A DNA stretch of 64,000 bases from Candidatus Niyogibacteria bacterium (GTDB lineage Bacteria; Patescibacteriota; Minisyncoccia; JACROR01): the NCBI GenBank assembly GCA_016186495.1, contig JACPLO010000010.1, positions 26,905 to 90,904 on the forward strand, in the 5' to 3' direction. This document shows, piece after piece, positions 2,495-40,063 of the stretch. Each line of letters begins with the position of its first letter. The first letter of the stretch is position 1. The position numbers and the translations under genes were made by a program. Below the pieces are notes generated by a model, which saw nothing but the letters and a program-made list of their open reading frames with translations, had not been told where the DNA came from and searched no databases.

Positions 2495-5269
2495 ATGAAT
2501 CAATTTTCAAACAAAAATTCAAAAACGCGAAAAATCTTAGCCGGAATTTTGCTTTTGATAATTTTATTTTCCGCAAGCTCTTTTTATCCGCGCCAAGCTA
2601 AAGCTGAAACGCCGGTCGCCGATTGGTTTATGAGAATCACTTCTGCATCCGGTTGGGCGTCAGCTATCGCTAATTATGCCAAAGAAGCGGCTGAAAAAGC
2701 GGCTAATATCGCGACCGCGACCTTCCGAAAAATGATTTTGGATATGATTGTGGATGAAATAATCGCCTGGATTTCCGGCGAAGGAACTTCGACTTTTGAC
2801 ACCGGCGATTGGGGGCAATTTTTTGATAAAGCGGCCCAGCAAGCCGGCGGCATATCCTTGGAAGAAATAACCGGGCCGGCTATAATGCAGCAGCTTTGCG
2901 ACGCTGATTGGGCCGGCCAAGTTCGGCTCGCTCTCCAAACTCCTAAAAAATTTGCCCAAAAAGCCCGCTGCACTCTTAGAGACATCGGCGTGAATTTTGA
3001 CGCTTTTATGGATAATTTTGAAAACGGCGGCTGGGCCGCCTGGATTAAAATTTCCGAAAGCCAAAACAATCCTTATGGCTATTTTCTTTCCGCGGTTAAT
3101 GAAAAACTAGCAAAAGAAACGCAGAAAAAACTGGGACTGGAAAAAGAGCTTACCGCTTCCGGCGGATTTTTAAGCGATAAAGTTTGCCGTAAAATATCCT
3201 GCCAAACGCGTTTGAAAATTGCGGGAACACAAGAAGCCGAATATAAAGAAGAAACGGGAAAATGGAAAGAAGATGAAATACCTATAAAAGACGGGACACC
3301 GTGCACTTGCGAAAAATGGGAAACCCTCACCCCAGGCAAGACAATGGCGGATTCTTTAAGCAAAACTGTTTTTAAAGATGTTGACTGGCTGAATGAAAAT
3401 TCAGAATGGTATAATTACGTGGTGGCGATCGGCGACGCGATTGTCAACCGGCTGACTAAAGAAGGGGTAAAAGCCATAAAATCCGCGGTCCCGCGAGGTT
3501 TGCCCACCTCTGTTTCTCAAGGCGTTACCGGCAAGGTTGATTACACGCCTCCTTTAACCTCGGCTAAAATTATTGATGTTTGGCAGGTAAAATTAACCGC
3601 CAATGAACCGGGAGACACTTATTACACTCTTGACGGAACAAAACCGCGCGTTCGCGCTTCTCCTAAATACAACGGTAAAGCGCTGACTATTATCAGCTCC
3701 ACCGCTCCGGGCGCAGCCACGGCCCAGTTAAAATGGCTTAGCGTGGATGACGCTTTCAATACCGAAGATCCGCGCAGCCTGCCGGTTTTTCTGCGCAGCC
3801 CTTTTAATTATTCAACTTTAACCGCTTATCTGGCCAGCCAAGACATCAGCATTCCCGAAAGCATCAAAGAAGCGCTGATAAAATTCTTCCGCGACGAAGA
3901 AAACGGAAAAGAAGCCGCAAAAATCGCCAAGGAAACTTTTATTCCCGCGAATATCCGCGAAGATTTAAAAAACTATCTGAAAATAGAAGATTTAAGAATC
4001 CAGTTAGGCAAAGAGTCTTTAATTAATCCGATCCAACGCAGCCAATTAGACGCTATTTTGGCGACTTACGAAGATTTTAATTCCGCTAATGACGGAAAGC
4101 TTACTGATCTCATTAATGTTTTAATAAAAATAAAAGAAGCGGGAATTAAAGCGTTTATTGACATTCAAACTCATGCCGAAGAAATCAAAGACCGGCGAAA
4201 TAATTTACAATCAATTCTCTCTTATCTCAACGGAGTAATCGCCAGCCTTGAAATATGTTCAAAAGCCCAGGCCGCGGCCGTTATTCGGGAAGGAGAAACA
4301 GCCGAAGAATTCGCCGTCAGAATAGCCGTTGAATCCAGCGCTTGCCAAAAAAACGCCAAAGCCGGCGCTTTTCCCGTTAATCTCAACGGCTTATCCTCGG
4401 GCTTAGCAACGGATCCGCTCTTTTCCGAGCTTAAAGATAAAACAGATAAAATAATTTTGGAACGTTCTTTATTCACGATTGATCCGGCCGGCAATTGGAG
4501 CAAACCTTCCGCCGCGCTCGCGCCAACGGATTCCGGACACGCGGCGATTCTTTCATTTAATCCTTTAACCGACAAACCCACGGCGATTTTCTTTAAACAA
4601 TCATCTTGGGAGACGGCAAATGATCGCAGCGCCGCAGTATCACTTCGTTTTAATAATCAAATTAACGGCTTTTATTATAAACAAGCTTTGGCTGTTCCGT
4701 CCGCAGTGAGTTCCGGCGGCACTGAAATCTGGTATGGAGCGATTGACGCGGCCGGCAATTGGACGGAAGAAAAAACGACTCAAGAATTTAACGCGGATTT
4801 TACCGATCTCCCTCCGCTCACTGATTTTGTCAAGCCAATCGCGGAAATTAAAAATCCGGTTAAAGGAAGTGACGGATATTTTATCTTAGACCCTTCGCTT
4901 TCCGTTGATTTTGACAGCACGCCGCGGATTAGCGGCTATGAATGGGATTTTATTAATAACCGCGGCGCTACGACAACAACCCAATCGCTCCAATATGAAT
5001 GGGAAGCTTTTGATTTAAACCGCGACGGCATTTTTACCGAAAACAACCAATGCCTTTATAATTTTTATTTAAATAATAATGAGGGAACGGTCGTCACCGG
5101 TATGGCTGGTTCAGACACATATTACGTGAACAACGACAACACCCGAGCAGTATCCGGCAGCTTAAGTCAAAAATATTATGACGCGGCTCATAGCTCGCCT
5201 TACAATAAAGCTCCCAATACAAGGCCGTTATATCTCAATCTGCAGCCAACCTGCCTAAAAAACAAATAA
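2495..5269 (+). CDS. large secreted/cell-surface protein (signal peptide; chitobiase/hexosaminidase-C-like YYTLDGTKP motif; Ig/PKD-like C-terminal regions); possible -1 frameshift extension to 5532
   Basis: 924-aa ORF, N-terminal signal/TM segment; downstream frame (5209-5532) encodes a PKD-like segment with no start codon and overlaps a slippery A AAA AAC at the stop. Confidence 0.55.
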   Translation: MNQFSNKNSKTRKILAGILLLIILFSASSFYPRQAKAETPVADWFMRITSASGWASAIANYAKEAAEKAANIATATFRKMILDMIVDEIIAWISGEGTSTFDTGDWGQFFDKAAQQAGGISLEEITGPAIMQQLCDADWAGQVRLALQTPKKFAQKARCTLRDIGVNFDAFMDNFENGGWAAWIKISESQNNPYGYFLSAVNEKLAKETQKKLGLEKELTASGGFLSDKVCRKISCQTRLKIAGTQEAEYKEETGKWKEDEIPIKDGTPCTCEKWETLTPGKTMADSLSKTVFKDVDWLNENSEWYNYVVAIGDAIVNRLTKEGVKAIKSAVPRGLPTSVSQGVTGKVDYTPPLTSAKIIDVWQVKLTANEPGDTYYTLDGTKPRVRASPKYNGKALTIISSTAPGAATAQLKWLSVDDAFNTEDPRSLPVFLRSPFNYSTLTAYLASQDISIPESIKEALIKFFRDEENGKEAAKIAKETFIPANIREDLKNYLKIEDLRIQLGKESLINPIQRSQLDAILATYEDFNSANDGKLTDLINVLIKIKEAGIKAFIDIQTHAEEIKDRRNNLQSILSYLNGVIASLEICSKAQAAAVIREGETAEEFAVRIAVESSACQKNAKAGAFPVNLNGLSSGLATDPLFSELKDKTDKIILERSLFTIDPAGNWSKPSAALAPTDSGHAAILSFNPLTDKPTAIFFKQSSWETANDRSAAVSLRFNNQINGFYYKQALAVPSAVSSGGTEIWYGAIDAAGNWTEEKTTQEFNADFTDLPPLTDFVKPIAEIKNPVKGSDGYFILDPSLSVDFDSTPRISGYEWDFINNRGATTTTQSLQYEWEAFDLNRDGIFTENNQCLYNFYLNNNEGTVVTGMAGSDTYYVNNDNTRAVSGSLSQKYYDAAHSSPYNKAPNTRPLYLNLQPTCLKNK

Positions 5270-9175: not shown

Positions 9176-11005
9176 ATGGCTTTACTTGATTTTTTCAAAT
9201 CAAAAAAGAAAGAAGAAAAAGAGGAGGAAATCTTGCCGGTTTTCCCCGCGGAAATTTATGAAGCCGGCGCTTTGGAATTAAAAGACGTCATCGCGCCTTC
9301 CGCTTTTGAAATAAGCTCAAATTTCATAAAAATCGGCAATAAAATCGCTAAAACTATTTTTGTGTATTCTTATCCCCGTTATCTTTCCACGGAATGGTTT
9401 TCCCCGATCATTAACTTGGATCAAATTTTTAATGTTTCTATTTTTATCCATCCCATCAACACCGAAACAGTCCTGAAACAAATGCAGAAAAAAGTGGCGG
9501 AAGTCCAGTCGCAGATCAGCATCCGCGAAGAAAAAGGGCTGGTTCGCGATCCGATTTTAGATACCGCCTTAAACGATCTGGAAAATCTGCGCGACAAACT
9601 CCAGCAAGCCCAGGAAAAACTTTTCAGCGCGGGAATTTACCTTACTATTTACGGCGACACGCTTCAGGAAGCGAACCAAAATGAGGCGGAAATCCGCCAT
9701 ATTTTAAACGCCAAACTGATTCAAACCAAACCTGCTCTTTTTCAGCAACAAGAGGGATTTGACAGTGTTTTGCCGTACGTCACCGACAAACTCCAGATCA
9801 ACAACCGCCTTAATTCCGAGCCTTTGTCTTCTATTTTTCCTTTTGTCTCTTTTGACCTCACCTCGGATAAAGGCATCCTTTACGGCATAAATCGCCACAA
9901 TAACTCGCTGATCCTTTTTGATCGCTTCAGTTTGGAAAATTACAATTCGGTTATCTTTGCCAAAGCCGGCGCCGGAAAATCATACACCACCAAATTAGAA
10001 GTCCTCCGTTCTTTAATGTTCGGCATAGACGTGATGATTATTGACCCGGAAAGAGAGTATGAATATTTGGCGGAAACCGTGGACGGCCGCTATATCAACA
10101 TTTCTTTAACTTCAAAAAATCATATTAATCCTTTTGATTTGCCGATTCCGCGGGAAGATGAATCGCCTTCCGATGTTTTGCGCTCTCATATCATTAATCT
10201 GGTCGGCCTTTTCCGCTTAATGCTGGGAGGATTGACGCCGAAAGAAGACTCTATTTTAGATCAAGCCATCACCGAAACCTACGCCGCCCATGACATTACT
10301 TTTGGAGCGGATTTTACCAAAGTTACGCCGCCTATTCTTTCCGATCTGGAAATGATTCTCGCTTCCACCGAAGGCGGGGAAGGATTGGCCCAGCGCCTGA
10401 AAAAATACACCAGCGGCAGTTGGGCGGGATTTTTAAACCAGCCCACTAACGTTGATATTAATAAACACTTGATTGTTTTTTCCGTCCGGGATATGGAGGA
10501 AGAATTAAAACCCGTGGCTATGTATCTGATCACCCATTATATCTGGAACGCGGTGCGGCTAACTTTAAAAAAACGGCTTTTAATCATTGATGAGGCTTGG
10601 TGGATGATGAAAACAGAGGATGGGGCTTCCTTCCTTTTCGGTTTGGCCAAACGGGCGAGAAAATATTATCTGGGAGTCTGCACCATCACTCAAGATGTCG
10701 GAGATTTTTTAAATTCTCCGTACGGCAAAGCGATTATCACTAATTCCTCAATGCAGCTTCTTTTGCGCCAATCTCCCGCGGCAATGGATCAACTGCAGGA
10801 AACATTCAACCTGACGGATGAAGAAAAATATCTTCTGTTGGAAGCGGACGTGGGCGAAGGCGTCTTTTTTGCCGGTTTAAAACACGTGGCGATAAAAGTG
10901 CTGGCTTCTTACACCGAAGATCAAATCATCACTTCTGATCCGGCCCAAATGCTGGCGATTAAAAAAGCGAAAGAAGAATATCAGCAATCCCAAGAAACGG
11001 GTTAA
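9176..11005 (+). CDS. virB4: VirB4-family type IV secretion ATPase (C-terminal NTPase part)
   Basis: Walker A AKAGAGKSYTTK; Walker B-like LLIIDEAWWMM; 609 aa; combined with 8539..9174 gives ~820 aa, normal for full-length VirB4. Confidence 0.8.
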   Translation: MALLDFFKSKKKEEKEEEILPVFPAEIYEAGALELKDVIAPSAFEISSNFIKIGNKIAKTIFVYSYPRYLSTEWFSPIINLDQIFNVSIFIHPINTETVLKQMQKKVAEVQSQISIREEKGLVRDPILDTALNDLENLRDKLQQAQEKLFSAGIYLTIYGDTLQEANQNEAEIRHILNAKLIQTKPALFQQQEGFDSVLPYVTDKLQINNRLNSEPLSSIFPFVSFDLTSDKGILYGINRHNNSLILFDRFSLENYNSVIFAKAGAGKSYTTKLEVLRSLMFGIDVMIIDPEREYEYLAETVDGRYINISLTSKNHINPFDLPIPREDESPSDVLRSHIINLVGLFRLMLGGLTPKEDSILDQAITETYAAHDITFGADFTKVTPPILSDLEMILASTEGGEGLAQRLKKYTSGSWAGFLNQPTNVDINKHLIVFSVRDMEEELKPVAMYLITHYIWNAVRLTLKKRLLIIDEAWWMMKTEDGASFLFGLAKRARKYYLGVCTITQDVGDFLNSPYGKAIITNSSMQLLLRQSPAAMDQLQETFNLTDEEKYLLLEADVGEGVFFAGLKHVAIKVLASYTEDQIITSDPAQMLAIKKAKEEYQQSQETG

Positions 11006-35638: not shown

Positions 35639-36262
35639 TTAAAATCCCAAGCCGGTAATCAATTGGAAAAGGCCGAAAACAATAGGCAGGATAATGCTCC
35701 AAAAAAAGAAAATAAAAATTAAAAGAATGAAGAATCCGTATTGTTCCAGAAAAATTTGGAGATGGCGCCAGCGATAAGGCAGGAGCGCGAAAAACACTTT
35801 GGAACCGTCTAAAGGAGGAATGGGGATTAAATTAAAAACCGCCAGAATAATGTTGATAAAAACAATTGAAGCGGTAATTTTTAGGAAAGCGTCGGAAATA
35901 AATCCGTTAGCCGCGCCGAATCTTATAATCAAGCCGAAGATAATCGCGATCAGGATATTAGCCAAAGGTCCGGCCGCGGCGACCGCGCCGGGCCCCCATT
36001 TTTGATTTTTTAAATTATAAGGATTATAAGGCACGGGACGAGCCCAGCCGAAAATAAAACCGCCGATAAGATAAGTGGTTGCCGGCACGATGATTGAACC
36101 GATTGGATCAAGGTGTTTTAAGGGATTTAAAGTAAGTCGTCCCTGAAGCCGGGCCGTGGGATCGCCTAAAGCATTGGCGCTGAAGCCGTGAGAAACTTCA
36201 TGAATCACCACTGACATGATTAAGATGGCGATCGCGAAGAAAAATTCAATTTCTGAAAACAT
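35639..36262 (-). CDS. M50-family (site-2 protease-like) zinc metalloprotease
   Basis: HEVSHG (HExxH) in a TM helix, NLIPIPPLDGS (LDG motif); 207 aa. Confidence 0.7.
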   Translation of the reverse strand: MFSEIEFFFAIAILIMSVVIHEVSHGFSANALGDPTARLQGRLTLNPLKHLDPIGSIIVPATTYLIGGFIFGWARPVPYNPYNLKNQKWGPGAVAAAGPLANILIAIIFGLIIRFGAANGFISDAFLKITASIVFINIILAVFNLIPIPPLDGSKVFFALLPYRWRHLQIFLEQYGFFILLIFIFFFWSIILPIVFGLFQLITGLGF

Positions 36263-36637
36263 GTTAAAAATTTAAAATTACTTGAATCTCCGATATTTTT
36301 ATAGTAAACTTTTTTTTATGGCAAACAATGTTTAATTTGTGGAAAAGGGTCGCGGATGGGGGGTAAAAGAAATCTTTTGCGCGGAAAATATAATCCTACT
36401 CCTAAAAAACGAAAATATCCCAATCTTCAGTGGGCGAGTTTTCCGGCTGGCGGCAGGATAAAAATTTGCACCCGTTGTCTCAAGAAAAATAAACTGCTTT
36501 ATTTTTCTTCCGATTCTTTGCAAAGCAAAAAAATTGCCAGTATGCCGAAGGCGCGAAGCAATAAGGAACAGAATCTCCATCTCAAAAAAACGGCTGTAAA
36601 ATAACCGTTTTTTGAGATAATAGTAAATAATAAATAT

Positions 36638-36810
36638 CGGGCCATAGTATAATGGCAGTACGCAAGGCTGGCTTTTCAAGTAATTTATCGGGATGTCGTA
36701 TAGTGGCAGTACGCATGCATGGGGTGCATGCAGTCCGAGTTCGATTCTCGGCATCCCGACCAATTACTTGAAAAGTTGCAACTTGGGTTCAATTCCCAGT
36801 GGCCCGACCA
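36638..36810 (+). other. tRNA-like outer halves (acceptor CGGGCCA/TGGCCCG-ACCA; D-arm and T-arm intact) separated by a 13-bp stem enclosing tRNA-Pro
   Basis: 5' part CGGGCCATAGTATAATGGCAGTACG... and 3' part ...TTGGGTTCAATTCCCAGTGGCCCGACCA; CTTTTCAAGTAAT (36672-36684) pairs with ATTACTTGAAAAG (36765-36777). Confidence 0.5.
36689..36762 (+). tRNA. tRNA-Pro (anticodon GGG), encoded CCA
   Basis: CGGGATG acceptor / CATCCCG-A-CCA; anticodon stem CATGC, loop ATGGGGT; T-arm CCGAG-TTCGATT-CTCGG. Confidence 0.75.
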
Positions 36811-36986
36811 TTCAAAATTAAATCAGATTAGAGAAAATCGCGAAGAAAAATGCCTTAAAATCGGCGATTCGTATTTGAATTTAACGCCGCTGATTTTATT
36901 TTTTTGTTTAATCAGCCGCGCGAAGGATTCAACCACATAATCAAAATGTTCTTTGTTGTAGACGCGGCGCGGAATGGCAAGGCGCA
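36805..36986. repeat. 182-bp direct repeat, copy 1 (starts in the tRNA 3' end; carries an orphan copy of the tryptophanase 3' end)
   Basis: ~98% identical to 38690-38871 (3 mismatches). Confidence 0.85.
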
Positions 36987-37244
36987 TTTCTTTGTTTCCT
37001 TTCTTAATTCGATTATTCTTTCTTTAATCCTGATCGGTGTTTCTCTGGGATTAGTTTTTGGCCTCTTTGATTTATTTTCCAGCCCTTCCAATCCGCTTTT
37101 TCTGTAATCAACCAACCAGTATTTAAGCGACCTTTCTGAAAAAGGACACACTCTGACCATATTCTTAATTGATATTTCTTTGTCTAATATCGGTTTAATC
37201 CATCTAAATTTTTCTTCTTTTGTTGATTTGGGCATAGTTTTCAT
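36912..37244 (-). pseudogene. transposase N-terminal HTH fragment (IS481/IS3-type), DDE domain absent
   Basis: FSERSLKYWLVDYRKSGLEGLENKSKRPKTNP resembles transposase HTH; ORF runs out into the direct repeat, no catalytic domain. Confidence 0.4.
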
Positions 37245-37300
37245 ATGCCCTTAGATTATTCAAAAAAGTGCAATATGTGTGTGTAGATTACCGCAAGCAC

Positions 37301-37329
37301 TTGACTTGTGGCAAAAAATAAACTATAAT
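37301..37329 (+). promoter_or_regulatory. consensus sigma70-type promoter (TTGACT - 17 bp - TATAAT)
   Basis: read directly; followed by SD GGAGGTG (37365-37371) 6 nt before ATG 37378. Confidence 0.6.
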
Positions 37330-37377
37330 ACGACGAGCATTTATCGAACCTTAAAAACCTCGATTGGAGGTGATCAC

Positions 37378-38415
37378 ATGAAGCAAACCAAAACTCTACT
37401 TCGAGTGCTATTGTCCCTTCTCATATTAGAGTCCGCGTTCGCAATTCACGAATACGGTCATCTAAGAGAGTTCCAGAAACGCGGCGTCCCTGTCAAGGAG
37501 TTTTCACTCGGGATCGGTCCCAGCATGTACCAATACCAAACTGATTCTTCGCTAACTGTAAGTTTCCGACTCATACCGATAATGGCGTATGTCGCGCCAA
37601 CGGAAGAGGGCGGAAACTTGTTTAAGAAGCAAGGATCGCTTTGGAACAAAATCGCTGTCGATTTGGCTGGAGTGCGTAATAACTTCTTGGTTGGCTTGGC
37701 CATCATACTCTTTCTGCAAATTCTTGGTTGGAGAAGAGGAAATCTCTCCGCAAAGGAACTCGCAGGAACAGCGATGGTTACGCCGTTCAAGATTCCGCTC
37801 CGCTTCGTCGCATTCCTCGTCGGATGCGTGACGTGGGGTCGCATCAACCTGGCGGAGAAATTTCTTCTCTCAACGGGGGGCATCGATCCGCCTAAGCCGC
37901 TCAAATCGCTCATCCTTTGGAACTTGACGCTTGGTCTTTTCAATCTTGCGCCAATTCCTCCACTTGACGGCGGTCACGCGCTAGAAGCTGTCTTACTCTC
38001 GGCAGGAACTAGCATCTACATATCAGAGATTCCGAAGTTTGTGGGCGTTATCCTTTTTGCCGTATATTGCACGACTGCTGGCAATCAGGATATGCGCGTG
38101 CTTGAAGTTGAACCAAGAAGCGACTCCGTGGAATCAAGAAGGGGCACAACGAAAAGAAGATCAAGCGGGGCGCTTGGCCGTTGGGAAGAAGAGGGAGAAG
38201 AAGCCCCCAGCTTCTTTTTGGTCCGGAGGATCACCCACACACATCTTCCGACTCGTGTCAGGAATATTCTCGAAGACTCCAGTATCTGCACGATTGGCGA
38301 ACTGCGGGAAACTACCGCAAGCCAGTTATTGCAGATCAAGGGTTTTGGTCTGAAATCTCTGGAAGCTGTCGAAAAACTTTTACGAGATAAAGGGCTATCC
38401 CTAAAACCGGAGTGA
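37378..38415 (+). CDS. chimeric ORF: RseP/M50-like N-terminal fragment fused to an RNA polymerase alpha-CTD-like HhH domain
   Basis: HEYGHL HExxH + NLAPIPPLDGGH (M50); C-terminal LPTRVRNILEDSSICTIGELRETTASQLLQIKGFGLKSLEAVEKLLRDKGLSL matches the alpha-CTD pattern; GC-rich; track ORF starts 37279 but the RBS-supported start is 37378. Confidence 0.5.
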   Translation: MKQTKTLLRVLLSLLILESAFAIHEYGHLREFQKRGVPVKEFSLGIGPSMYQYQTDSSLTVSFRLIPIMAYVAPTEEGGNLFKKQGSLWNKIAVDLAGVRNNFLVGLAIILFLQILGWRRGNLSAKELAGTAMVTPFKIPLRFVAFLVGCVTWGRINLAEKFLLSTGGIDPPKPLKSLILWNLTLGLFNLAPIPPLDGGHALEAVLLSAGTSIYISEIPKFVGVILFAVYCTTAGNQDMRVLEVEPRSDSVESRRGTTKRRSSGALGRWEEEGEEAPSFFLVRRITHTHLPTRVRNILEDSSICTIGELRETTASQLLQIKGFGLKSLEAVEKLLRDKGLSLKPE

Positions 38416-38436
38416 GAGTAGCTTCTCGACCATCGC

Positions 38437-38480
38437 GGGGGGCGCGCAGAGCAATCTGTGCGCCCCCCTTTTTCTTTTTC
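38437..38480 (+). terminator. strong intrinsic terminator (14-bp GC stem GGGGGGCGCGCAGA/TCTGTGCGCCCCCC + T-run)
   Basis: read directly after stop of 37378..38415. Confidence 0.75.
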
Positions 38481-38689
38481 AGAATTTCAAAGAACAAATC
38501 TTTGCGAAAACAAATTTTTTTAGCTATTCTTTATTTGTATTTGTATTTGTTTCCGCAACTATCGGCGCGAATTTTTCCGAAGCGAGGGCGGGGCGGAATT
38601 CCTCCCTTCCAATCCTCTCCTTCCGCCGCGCCCGAGCGGAGCGATCAGGAATTTTTCTCAAAATGGGTTCGCGCTAAATTCAGAATACG

Positions 38690-38871
38690 CGACCATTCAA
38701 AATTAAATCAGATTAGAGAAAATCGCGAAGAAAAATGCCTTAAAATCGGAGATTCGTATTTGAATTTAACGCCGCTGATTTTATTTTTTTGTTTGATCAG
38801 CCGCGCGAAGGATTCAACCACATAATCAAAATGTTCTTTGTTGTAGACGCGGCGCGGAATGGCCAGGCGCA
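38690..38871. repeat. 182-bp direct repeat, copy 2 (contains the functional 3' end of the tryptophanase gene)
   Basis: matches 36805-36986. Confidence 0.85.
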
Positions 38872-40063
38872 AAAGTTCTCGGGGCGCGCGCCGGTTTTCT
38901 TTGGTTTGCGGATCGCGGCCCTCCATTATTGATCCGATTTCAACTCCGCGCACGCCGCCTTCAATATATAAGGCGATTGCCAAAGAATGCGCCGGAAATT
39001 TGTTCCAGGCAATATGAGGCAAAAATTTGTCGGCGACAACATAAACCGCGTGGCCGCCGATCGGGCGAATGACCGGAACGCCAAGATTATGAAGCGATTC
39101 TCCCAAATATTTCGTCTGATTGACGCGATAGCGCAGATAATTTTCGTCAATTCCTTCATAAAGCCCTTGGGCCACTGTTTCTATGTCGCGGCCGGACATT
39201 CCTCCGTAATTTAAAAATCCTTCCATTAAAATCGCCTGCGGCGCCAGCTTTTCAAAAAGTTTGCGGTTTCTTAAAGCGATAAAACCGCCCATATTGGCGA
39301 TAGCGTCTTTTTTGGCGCTCATCAAAACGCCGTCGGCGTATTTCATCGTTTCCAAAACAATGTTTTTTATCGGCCAGCTTTTATATTTTTTTTCGCGCTC
39401 TTTTATAAAAAAAGAATTTTCGGCAAAGCGGGCAATGTCGTAAAACAGCGGAATTTTATATCGCCGGCAGATTTTTGAAACCGCTTTTATGTTTGTCAAA
39501 GACATCGGCTGGCCGCCGACGCTGTTGCAGGTAATTGTCAATAAAACATAAGCAGTTTTCTTGGAATTGAGAGTTTTTTCAAGTTTTTTCAAATCAACAT
39601 TGCCCTTGAAACCGAACAAACTTTCCGCATTCCAGGCGTTTTGGCAGGCGCAATCAATGATTTTACCGCCGCGATTTTCAATATGGGCCCGTGTCGTGTC
39701 AAAGGGAGAATTGCCGGCAATGATATCGCCGTCTTTGACAAGAACTTTATTGAAAACCTGTTCGGCGCCTCGGCCTTGATGAGTCGGGATAATATACGGA
39801 AATCCCATGATTTTTTGGATTGCTTTTTCAAGCCGCTGAAAGCTGGTTGAACCGGCATAGGATTCGTCGCCTTGCATCAGGGCCGACCATTGGTCTTCGG
39901 ACATCGCGCCGGTTCCGGAATCGGTTAACAAATCAATCGTTATATCGTCGGATTTTAAGAAAAATAAATTATATCCGGCTTTTTTTATTTTTTTGATCCG
40001 CTCTTCTTTTGTCAGAGTTTTTATTGGCTCTACCATTTTTGTTTTGTACGGCGGAAAAGTCAT
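38708..40063 (-). CDS. tnaA: beta-eliminating lyase: tryptophanase / tyrosine phenol-lyase family
   Basis: 451 aa; ...DLLTDSGTGAMS..., IPTHQGRGAEQ, PLP-lysine region SAKKDAIANMGG; close to full-length TnaA/TPL pattern. Confidence 0.8.
   Translation of the reverse strand: MTFPPYKTKMVEPIKTLTKEERIKKIKKAGYNLFFLKSDDITIDLLTDSGTGAMSEDQWSALMQGDESYAGSTSFQRLEKAIQKIMGFPYIIPTHQGRGAEQVFNKVLVKDGDIIAGNSPFDTTRAHIENRGGKIIDCACQNAWNAESLFGFKGNVDLKKLEKTLNSKKTAYVLLTITCNSVGGQPMSLTNIKAVSKICRRYKIPLFYDIARFAENSFFIKEREKKYKSWPIKNIVLETMKYADGVLMSAKKDAIANMGGFIALRNRKLFEKLAPQAILMEGFLNYGGMSGRDIETVAQGLYEGIDENYLRYRVNQTKYLGESLHNLGVPVIRPIGGHAVYVVADKFLPHIAWNKFPAHSLAIALYIEGGVRGVEIGSIMEGRDPQTKENRRAPRELLRLAIPRRVYNKEHFDYVVESFARLIKQKNKISGVKFKYESPILRHFSSRFSLI

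Follow-up and report, generated by a model that had tools for sequence, protein, structure and literature searches.

The stretch analysed here, referred to below as the window, comprises 64,000 nucleotides of a Candidatus Niyogibacteria genome. Between a tRNA-Pro locus and the 3′ end of a tryptophanase-family gene (tnaA), it carries two direct repeats of 182 bp, denoted DR1 and DR2. The repeats enclose the remnant of an insertion sequence (IS) of the IS481 family and a gene for a predicted membrane metalloprotease of the Peptidase M50 family, which ends in a domain resembling the C-terminal domain (CTD) of the RNA polymerase alpha subunit (the M50-alphaCTD gene). The features are listed in Table 1. 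The repeats are best read as a scar of illegitimate and homologous recombination rather than as attachment (att) sites, and the interior as a module typical of the clade; we put the probability of this reading at about 0.72.

Table 1. Features of the repeat-bounded locus. Positions are those of the window (1 is its first letter) unless a relative is named; L-numbers label relatives.
Feature	Position	Strand	Remarks
Disrupted outer tRNA-Pro-like gene	36639-36810	plus	5′ part 36639-36672, 3′ part 36776-36810
Inner complete tRNA-Pro(GGG)	36689-36762	plus	ARAGORN and Rfam
Leader/trailer helix around tRNA-Pro(GGG)	36670-36790; L081 390-521; L084 7009-7153; L078 9395-9500; L079 255-355		
Repeat copy 1 (DR1)	36805-36986	.	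derived; orphan tnaA 3′ flank and last 54 codons
IS481-family remnant	36987-37291	minus	element end, 5′ untranslated region and first ~87 transposase codons (helix-turn-helix); Pfam, homologues, L086 DNA alignment
Clade-typical module	37292-38693	plus	promoter to conserved 34-nt tail; DNA homology to relatives
Promoter-like TTGACT-17-TATAAT	37301-37329	plus	11/12 consensus positions
Shine-Dalgarno GGAGGTG	37366-37372	plus	
M50-alphaCTD gene	37378-38415	plus	345 aa; Peptidase_M50 and RNA_pol_A_CTD
Terminator hairpin	38437-38468	plus	14 bp, 11 G-C pairs, then T run
GC-rich palindromic element	38557-38659		~100 nt, downstream of terminator
Copies of the palindromic element in relatives	L073 3554-3595, 4903-4944; L083 3515-3543, 4847-4875; L079 340-435		
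Repeat copy 2 (DR2)	38690-38871	.	native; tnaA 3′ flank and last 54 codons
Tryptophanase / tyrosine phenol-lyase family gene (tnaA)	38708-40063	minus	451 aa; Beta_elim_lyase PF01212 2.3e-73, NCBIfam NF009709 644 bits
RpoA	L078 13354-14109		

DR1 and DR2 are identical at 179 of 182 positions and are offset by 1,885 nt; for a repeat of this length and 98% identity within 64 kb, a chance origin is excluded. DR2 is made up of an 18-nt 3′ flank and the last 54 codons of tnaA, and is continuous with the full-length ORF, which Pfam and NCBIfam profile matches place in the tryptophanase subfamily of the beta-eliminating lyases. DR1 has a different make-up. Its first 6 nt, CGACCA, are the final 6 nt of the outer tRNA-Pro-like sequence, and its other 176 nt consist of the tnaA 3′ flank and final 54 codons, with the tnaA-derived portion covering approximately 36811-36977. 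The orphan ORF contained in it (36823-36987, minus strand) has 54 codons and the amino acids of the tnaA C-terminus except at the first residue (Met for Leu), with no tnaA sequence upstream. The original prediction had described two ~98%-identical 182-bp repeats at exactly these positions, with copy 1 starting in the last bases of the tRNA and carrying an orphan tnaA end and copy 2 supplying the real 3′ end, and this description is borne out in full.

The three mismatches between the copies, at bases 36865, 36910 and 36979 of DR1, are all synonymous third-position differences in the tnaA frame (TCG/TCT, ATT/ATC and CTT/CTG). Under a simple neutral model, this pattern is estimated to be about 6% likely if DR1 had drifted as dead DNA, or 16% likely if the base at 36979 is left out. 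It is what would be expected if both copies had diverged within functional alleles, which fits an origin of one copy from a conspecific donor (path (a) below).

The outer 6 nt and the inner ~9 nt of DR1 are microhomology with the sequences joined to it, and both novel joints appear to lie in such microhomology, CGACCA and TGCGCCT(T/G)G. At the outer joints (J1/J3), CGACCA ends the tRNA, and the conserved spacer ends in CGA, followed by CCA. At the inner joint between DR1 and the IS (J2), the minus strand reads ...AAGAAATGCGCCTTGCCATTCC in the window, ...AAGAAATGCGCCCTGAAATT in a related IS (L086) and ...CTTTTGCGCCTGGCCATTCC in tnaA (DR2). The transposase gene and tnaA have TGCGCC(T) in common, indicating that the J2 crossover took place within the 7-9 nt of TGCGCCT(T/G)G; the third repeat mismatch (36979) falls inside. 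This reading of J2 implies TGCGCCTTG at the truncation point in intact IS copies of this genome.

The original prediction saw in this arrangement the classic attL/attR signature of an element integrated at a tRNA locus; a small integrative element would have entered the tRNA 3′ end site-specifically and would since have lost its integrase. The start of the repeat within the tRNA 3′ end agrees with such an origin, as does the recombination-prone appearance of the tRNA-Pro(GGG) locus in the clade, with displaced tRNA 3′ fragments in the window, L081 and L084. However, only 6 of the 182 repeat bases are tRNA; the remainder belongs to the coding 3′ end of tnaA, which is the reverse of what an att core in a tRNA looks like, and the inner end of DR1 cuts the transposase ORF in microhomology. 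In addition, the ORF list and Pfam give no integrase or recombinase in 36805-38871, where HTH_28/HTH_32, Peptidase_M50 and RNA_pol_A_CTD are the only domains. Microhomology at both joints, the missing integrase and a repeat composed of 6 nt of tRNA and 176 nt of gene together argue for illegitimate plus homologous recombination and not for att sites.

The transposase fragment lies in an ORF of 110 aa (36912-37244, minus strand), whose reading frame continues into DR1. It matches HTH_28 (6.8e-7) and HTH_32 (2.8e-6) and, weakly and below the cut-off, the leucine-zipper family LZ_Tnp_IS481 (0.0017). Pfam finds no DDE (rve) catalytic domain, so that the helix-turn-helix fragment without a catalytic domain named in the original prediction is confirmed. 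The 109 homologues of the transposase N-terminus, the closest with 94% identity (Patescibacteria), are all short or located at contig ends, as expected of a repeated element. They run on ...RKETKKCALKLKW... toward the DDE-domain region, the longer ones continuing ...RKETKKCALKLKWQLEKEGINIH...GELVEIDV in the same direction. The window frame departs from this homology after ...RKETKKCAL and then enters DR1. The DNA of L086, whose IS is 93% identical, aligns from ~37287 to the DR1/IS joint, and this alignment together with the start of module homology defines the single IS end in the window, at ~37287-37291. The remnant thus has the N-terminal domains, the weak zipper match and one recognisable end of the IS481 family; in contrast to members of that family, it ends after about codon 87 and lacks the DDE domain, the second end and any target duplication. 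Both DR1 and this fragment are dead by-products.

Nine contexts of M50-alphaCTD family members were compared. In seven of them the gene lies directly downstream of a tRNA-Pro on the same strand, the tRNA being tRNA-Pro(GGG) in L073, L074/75, L078, L079, L081 and L084, and tRNA-Pro(CGG) in L082; L083 has the module without a tRNA-Pro, and the L085 contig begins too near the gene to judge. As in the window (35639-36262), the tRNA of L073 and L074 is preceded by a divergently oriented small M50 gene. The genes farther out differ in every relative genome, and repeats of the 182-bp type are absent from the tRNA neighbourhood of the gene in the relatives. At the DNA level, the module is 80-86% identical over its whole length in L073 and L085 and over most of it in L078, L079 and L083. 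Homology starts at 37292/37293 (L078, L079, L085) or 37300 (L073, L074), just before the -35 box, and ends at 38692/38693 in L073 and L085, the only two relatives that can be aligned through the spacer; these are the first bases of DR2. The window, L073 and L085 share ...AATTCAGAATACGCGA and then diverge, with CCATTC..., AAAAATC... and CTGAATG..., respectively.

The promoter and Shine-Dalgarno sequence are conserved in the relatives, the terminator and spacer also in the closest ones, and the terminator stem shows compensatory changes relative to L073. The strong GC-rich terminator of the original prediction is present as described; its "perfect-consensus" promoter and Shine-Dalgarno sequence are both there as well, but the promoter, with one position off consensus, is not perfect. 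The ~490 nt between tRNA and promoter, namely DR1 and the ~300-nt IS remnant, set the window apart from the clade pattern; L073 carries an IS110 at this spot. Judged from these comparisons, the M50-alphaCTD gene appears to be a normal neighbour of tRNA-Pro in related bacteria and no foreign island.

The composition of the interior had also been taken as a sign of foreign origin. Its overall GC is 0.459, compared to 0.406 for the window, and the M50-alphaCTD ORF (GC 0.489, third-position GC 0.515) has the highest values of the 47 window ORFs on both counts, which is in line with an integrated element. The compositional claim is confirmed only in part: the ORF exceeds the mean by no more than about 2 standard deviations, and at a GC of 0.335 the IS fragment is AT-rich. 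The orthologous gene has a GC of 0.48-0.53 in every relative, alike where the rest of the locus is at 0.42 and where it is at 0.53. This constancy across hosts indicates that the high GC is a property of the gene and is not evidence of a recent jump. The relatives carry the same promoter and gene downstream of tRNA-Pro, which is largely the outcome that the original prediction had named as its own refutation, and a one-off capture from a higher-GC donor, as originally suggested, is not supported. The locus resembles tRNA-targeting islands and prophages in that DNA of deviating composition is enclosed by direct repeats, the first of which starts inside a tRNA 3′ end. It differs from them in having no integrase, in a repeat that is almost wholly non-tRNA (the 3′ end of a convergent gene) and in enclosing a gene that relatives with other flanking genes carry at the same tRNA without any such repeat. 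Site-specific integration of an element that later lost its integrase is accordingly very improbable, and a direct repeat at a tRNA combined with unusual GC is insufficient to call an island.

On the preferred reading, a recombination scar, the resident order would have been that of the clade: tRNA-Pro, promoter, M50-alphaCTD gene, terminator and spacer. An IS481-family element would have entered about 10 nt upstream of the -35 box. An illegitimate joint in TGCGCCT(T/G)G would then have bounded a 1,885-bp unit (36987-38871), which starts mid-IS, takes in the module and ends at codon 54 from the end of tnaA. With X denoting the 3′ segment of tnaA, the resulting order is tRNA, X, truncated IS, module, X, tnaA. 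This product could have arisen by two paths. In path (a), the unit would derive from a conspecific donor (IS, module, X, tnaA) as a circle or a linear fragment and would recombine through X with a chromosome in which the tRNA abuts X, by a Campbell-type single crossover or by homology-facilitated illegitimate recombination. In path (b), the unit would be duplicated in tandem in place, and a deletion between two CGACCA hexamers, one ending the tRNA and one ending the spacer, would then remove the upstream copy. Neither path needs a dedicated recombinase. They are about equally likely, at ~55:45 for (a) to (b), the ratio being kept near even because the mismatch sample comprises only three sites. 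Within this class of explanation, insertion of the 1.9-kb unit into a site that once held a single 182-bp copy is plausible, at roughly even odds.

A close parallel is offered by Campbell-type integration and homology-facilitated illegitimate recombination as known from transformation and conjugation. There, as here, the inserted DNA lies between two direct copies of the chromosomal segment that provided the homology, with one homologous joint and one illegitimate joint at short microhomology and no dedicated recombinase. In E. coli, 109-950 bp of the homologous segment were found duplicated where circularised DNA had integrated by a single crossover (PMC3240628). The locus differs in that a donor, if there was one, would have had to match the segment almost perfectly (3 synonymous differences over 182 nt), and in that the event is read from a single sequence, with tandem duplication and deletion giving the same product. 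The repeats now permit RecA-dependent pop-out loss of the unit and predict a presence/absence polymorphism of 1.9 kb. The repeat as such matters little, being one more case of microhomology and short homology reshuffling small, streamlined genomes and killing an IS; the locus also documents the tRNA-Pro(GGG) neighbourhood as a recombination hot spot in these Patescibacteria.

The assembly itself has to be considered, since a single genomic 182-bp copy through which the assembler had threaded another locus or strain variant would give the same picture. The source of the window is a metagenome-assembled genome (a protein identical to the M50-alphaCTD product is annotated in one from Candidatus Niyogibacteria), the repeat exceeds the usual assembly k-mers, and two of the three relevant joints are seen in the source assembly only. 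However, the interior is found at 100% identity in Logan assemblies of four runs from two run series, and the contigs of SRR4343430, SRR4343428 and SRR12113430 contain the DR1/IS joint. All three start at 36949, exactly 30 nt before the copy-1-specific base 36979. Logan assemblies are built with k = 31, and a start at this position is expected of a 31-mer graph when the sequence to the left is common to two contexts, that is, when both copies exist. The DR1/IS joint, with its copy-1-specific base independently assembled in at least three runs of two series, is real DNA in several samples. Furthermore, an overlap of 6 nt cannot yield the joint of module spacer and DR2 in an assembler, and the gene order in relatives, small M50 gene, tRNA-Pro and M50-alphaCTD, argues that the module does belong beside this tRNA. 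We regard an artefact as most unlikely.

Several observations nevertheless weigh against the scar. The Logan contigs end at 38462-38686, short of DR2, and they leave the tRNA-DR1 and spacer-DR2 joints unconfirmed outside the source assembly, so that these two joints rest on that assembly and on the synteny argument. Exact-protein look-ups and DNA scans returned neither an empty-site allele nor an allele with a full-length IS. Exact-protein look-ups for conspecific contigs, with tnaA (two alternative starts) and the 110-aa ORF, gave nothing, and a 39-mer from the repeat had no match in IMG/VR or among JGI metagenome contigs. The closest tnaA genes (69-72% identity), which occur among different neighbours in other Parcubacteria (Sungbacteria, Azambacteria, Niyogibacteria), have no adjacent tRNA and are uninformative as to the empty site. 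The microhomology at J2 is deduced from an IS relative of 93% identity and not from an intact copy of this genome's own. The start of DR2 coincides with the end of homology to the relatives, which requires either a coincidence of CGACCA or an older event that created the hexamer repeat. Finally, an imperfect repeat of ~20 nt (CGAAAAAA..TCTT..TAAAT) occupies in L073 the two places that the 182-bp repeat occupies in the window; its score is within the shuffle range, and its striking position hints at a more regular, possibly element-like process.

In L073, the bases that follow the tRNA (2548-2575, CGAAAAAACTCTTGACTTAAAT) recur after the module end (5050-5075, CGAAAAAATCTTAATAAAAT). Comparison of the DR start with the ancestral post-tRNA sequence is nominally significant against L073 only (2/1000 shuffles) and not in four other relatives, and is kept as a hint. 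The sequence TGGGTTC..AATTC..CGACCA at the end of the spacer resembles a tRNA T-arm and acceptor, but its reading as the remnant of an old att site was rejected: the local alignment score is within the shuffle range, no intact T-arm fragment lies downstream of any module, and in the fold the motif GGGTTCGCGC is base-paired to the palindromic element.

From the sequences compared, it is plausible that related Patescibacteria have exchanged the module laterally, given its low synonymous divergence (dS), the similarity of its spacer, the inverted palindromes around it and the rarity of the family relative to RpoA. A stronger form holds that the module is a small mobilisable cassette, exchanged between Patescibacteria and landing beside tRNA-Pro, either with the tRNA as homology anchor or through its own inverted terminal elements; the repeats (182 bp here, ~20 bp in L073) would then be insertion footprints. 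Relative to L073, dS is 0.44 for the M50-alphaCTD gene and ~1.96 (saturated) for the adjacent small M50 gene, the one flanking gene compared; stronger constraint on the former could account for part of the difference. The spacer, although non-coding, is ~81-85% identical, the homology boundaries are sharp, the GC of the gene is constant across hosts and L083 has the module without a tRNA-Pro. The family is also rare, with ~50 close homologues (~20 of them two-domain) compared to more than 7,900 clade RpoA homologues in the same database. Inverted copies of the ~100-nt palindrome flank the gene in L073 (42 nt, 95%) and L083 (29 nt, 100%). On the other hand, no transposase or integrase accompanies the module, the palindrome is single-copy in the window with a fold no better than shuffles, and the L073 repeat score is not significant. 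With one flanking gene compared and no mobility gene travelling with the module, this form is unlikely, and the scar remains the preferred origin of the repeats.

The GC-rich palindrome is also found in relatives inverted between the tRNA and the promoter, so that the gene is bracketed by inverted copies. As a multi-copy miniature inverted-repeat transposable element it was rejected, being single-copy in the window and folding with z = 0.3. The L078 orthologue (10001-10987) is 86% identical to window positions 37293-38111 at the DNA level over its first 819 nt, its C-terminal third is too diverged for blastn, and the proteins are 71% identical overall; this mosaic divergence is suggestive of recombination within the M50-alphaCTD gene.

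The enclosed gene is of more interest than the repeat. PF02163 (Peptidase_M50) matches residues 15-210 of the 345-aa product (1.1e-24), and both catalytic motifs are present, HExxH (HEYGH) at residue 24 and NLAPIPPLDGG, with its LDG at residue 196. There are four hydrophobic segments, and the M50 motifs lie inside such segments. A charged linker joins this core to the alpha-CTD homologue at residues ~280-340, where PF03118 matches residues 282-336 (7e-9; 35.7 bits compared to a cut-off of 23.8). A search of solved structures with the C-terminal 60-70 residues hits nothing but the CTDs of alpha subunits (43 sequences, best E = 9.5e-6). The dimerisation/insert N-terminal domain of alpha is absent by Pfam and the alpha part consists of the CTD only, so that, in contrast with RNA polymerase alpha, the CTD sits on a membrane protease. 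The signature residues of the helix-hairpin-helix are kept across the alignment of the family. In an AlphaFold model of the fusion protein, the CTD alone is confident (pLDDT 78-94), with the M50 part below 55. The protein shares the HExxH and LDG motifs with site-2 proteases (Peptidase M50: RseP, SpoIVFB) but has no PDZ domains.

The identical protein annotated in NCBI (P0001) is accompanied by at least 16 further proteins with both domains, at 48-90% identity; relatives without the CTD also exist. The ratio of nonsynonymous to synonymous divergence (dN/dS) against L073, the closest relative with DNA compared, is ~0.12. The original prediction was right about the domain content (M50 and alpha-CTD-like), as Pfam confirms. 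Its interpretation as a chimeric ORF with an M50 N-terminal fragment is not supported, given the two catalytic motifs, the conserved two-domain family and the dN/dS. M50-alphaCTD proteins are better described as a conserved Patescibacteria family of putative membrane metalloproteases, with a complete M50 core and an alpha-CTD, and the gene, with its own conserved promoter and terminator, is presumably functional.

RpoA of this Parcubacteria/Paceibacterota clade is 248-283 aa long and has the N-terminal domains PF01000 and PF01193 only; the alpha-CTD (PF03118) is absent from all 120 of the 120 best RpoA homologues. In the examined loci, the only alpha-CTD-like domain is the M50-fused one, its gene being 2.4 kb away from the rpoA operon in L078. 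The searchable literature yielded no account of alpha-CTD loss in the Candidate Phyla Radiation or of an M50-alphaCTD fusion. A conserved fusion of a site-2 protease and an alpha-CTD in a clade with such an RpoA would, if the fusion and the loss of the CTD are connected, bear on transcription activation in these bacteria. A speculative extension, which we consider unlikely, combines this with lateral exchange. Gene, promoter, terminator and palindromic flanks would form an accessory cassette of Niyogibacteria-like Patescibacteria, laterally exchanged and anchored at tRNA-Pro. Repeated gain and loss of this cassette would have left the nested tRNA, the displaced tRNA fragments and the 182-bp repeat as footprints, and the protein would provide an alpha-CTD, tethered to the membrane and perhaps set free by proteolysis, where RpoA has lost its own. 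Whatever the standing of this proposal, the CTD-less RpoA and the nested tRNA are more unusual than the repeat itself.

The outer tRNA-Pro-like gene is split at the anticodon by a 16-bp leader/trailer helix around the complete inner tRNA-Pro(GGG). Its halves match the single tRNA-Pro(GGG) of L073, minus ~5 nt of the anticodon loop and stem. ARAGORN and Rfam detect only the inner tRNA, and the outer gene looks dead. The RNA fold of the whole tRNA-in-tRNA region (36639-36810) has an energy of -76.4 kcal/mol (z = -6.4).

Leader/trailer helices of 8-16 bp, with differing sequences, surround tRNA-Pro(GGG) in several relatives in a covariation-like pattern. Their geometry is identical in the window, L081 and L084, where the helix stops 4 nt before +1 and resumes directly after CCA. 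The helices could be a processing stem or a recurrent recombination footprint. In the same three contexts, a displaced copy of the tRNA 3′ third follows the tRNA; in L081, it is a perfect 34-nt repeat lying 12 nt past the tRNA.

Upstream of the tRNA, positions 36325-36441 are 71-82% identical in L074 and L078. They fall within an ORF of 82 aa (36356-36604, plus strand) that contains ...YPNLQ...CTRCLKK and has no significant Pfam match, and may represent a small conserved gene or a regulatory region.

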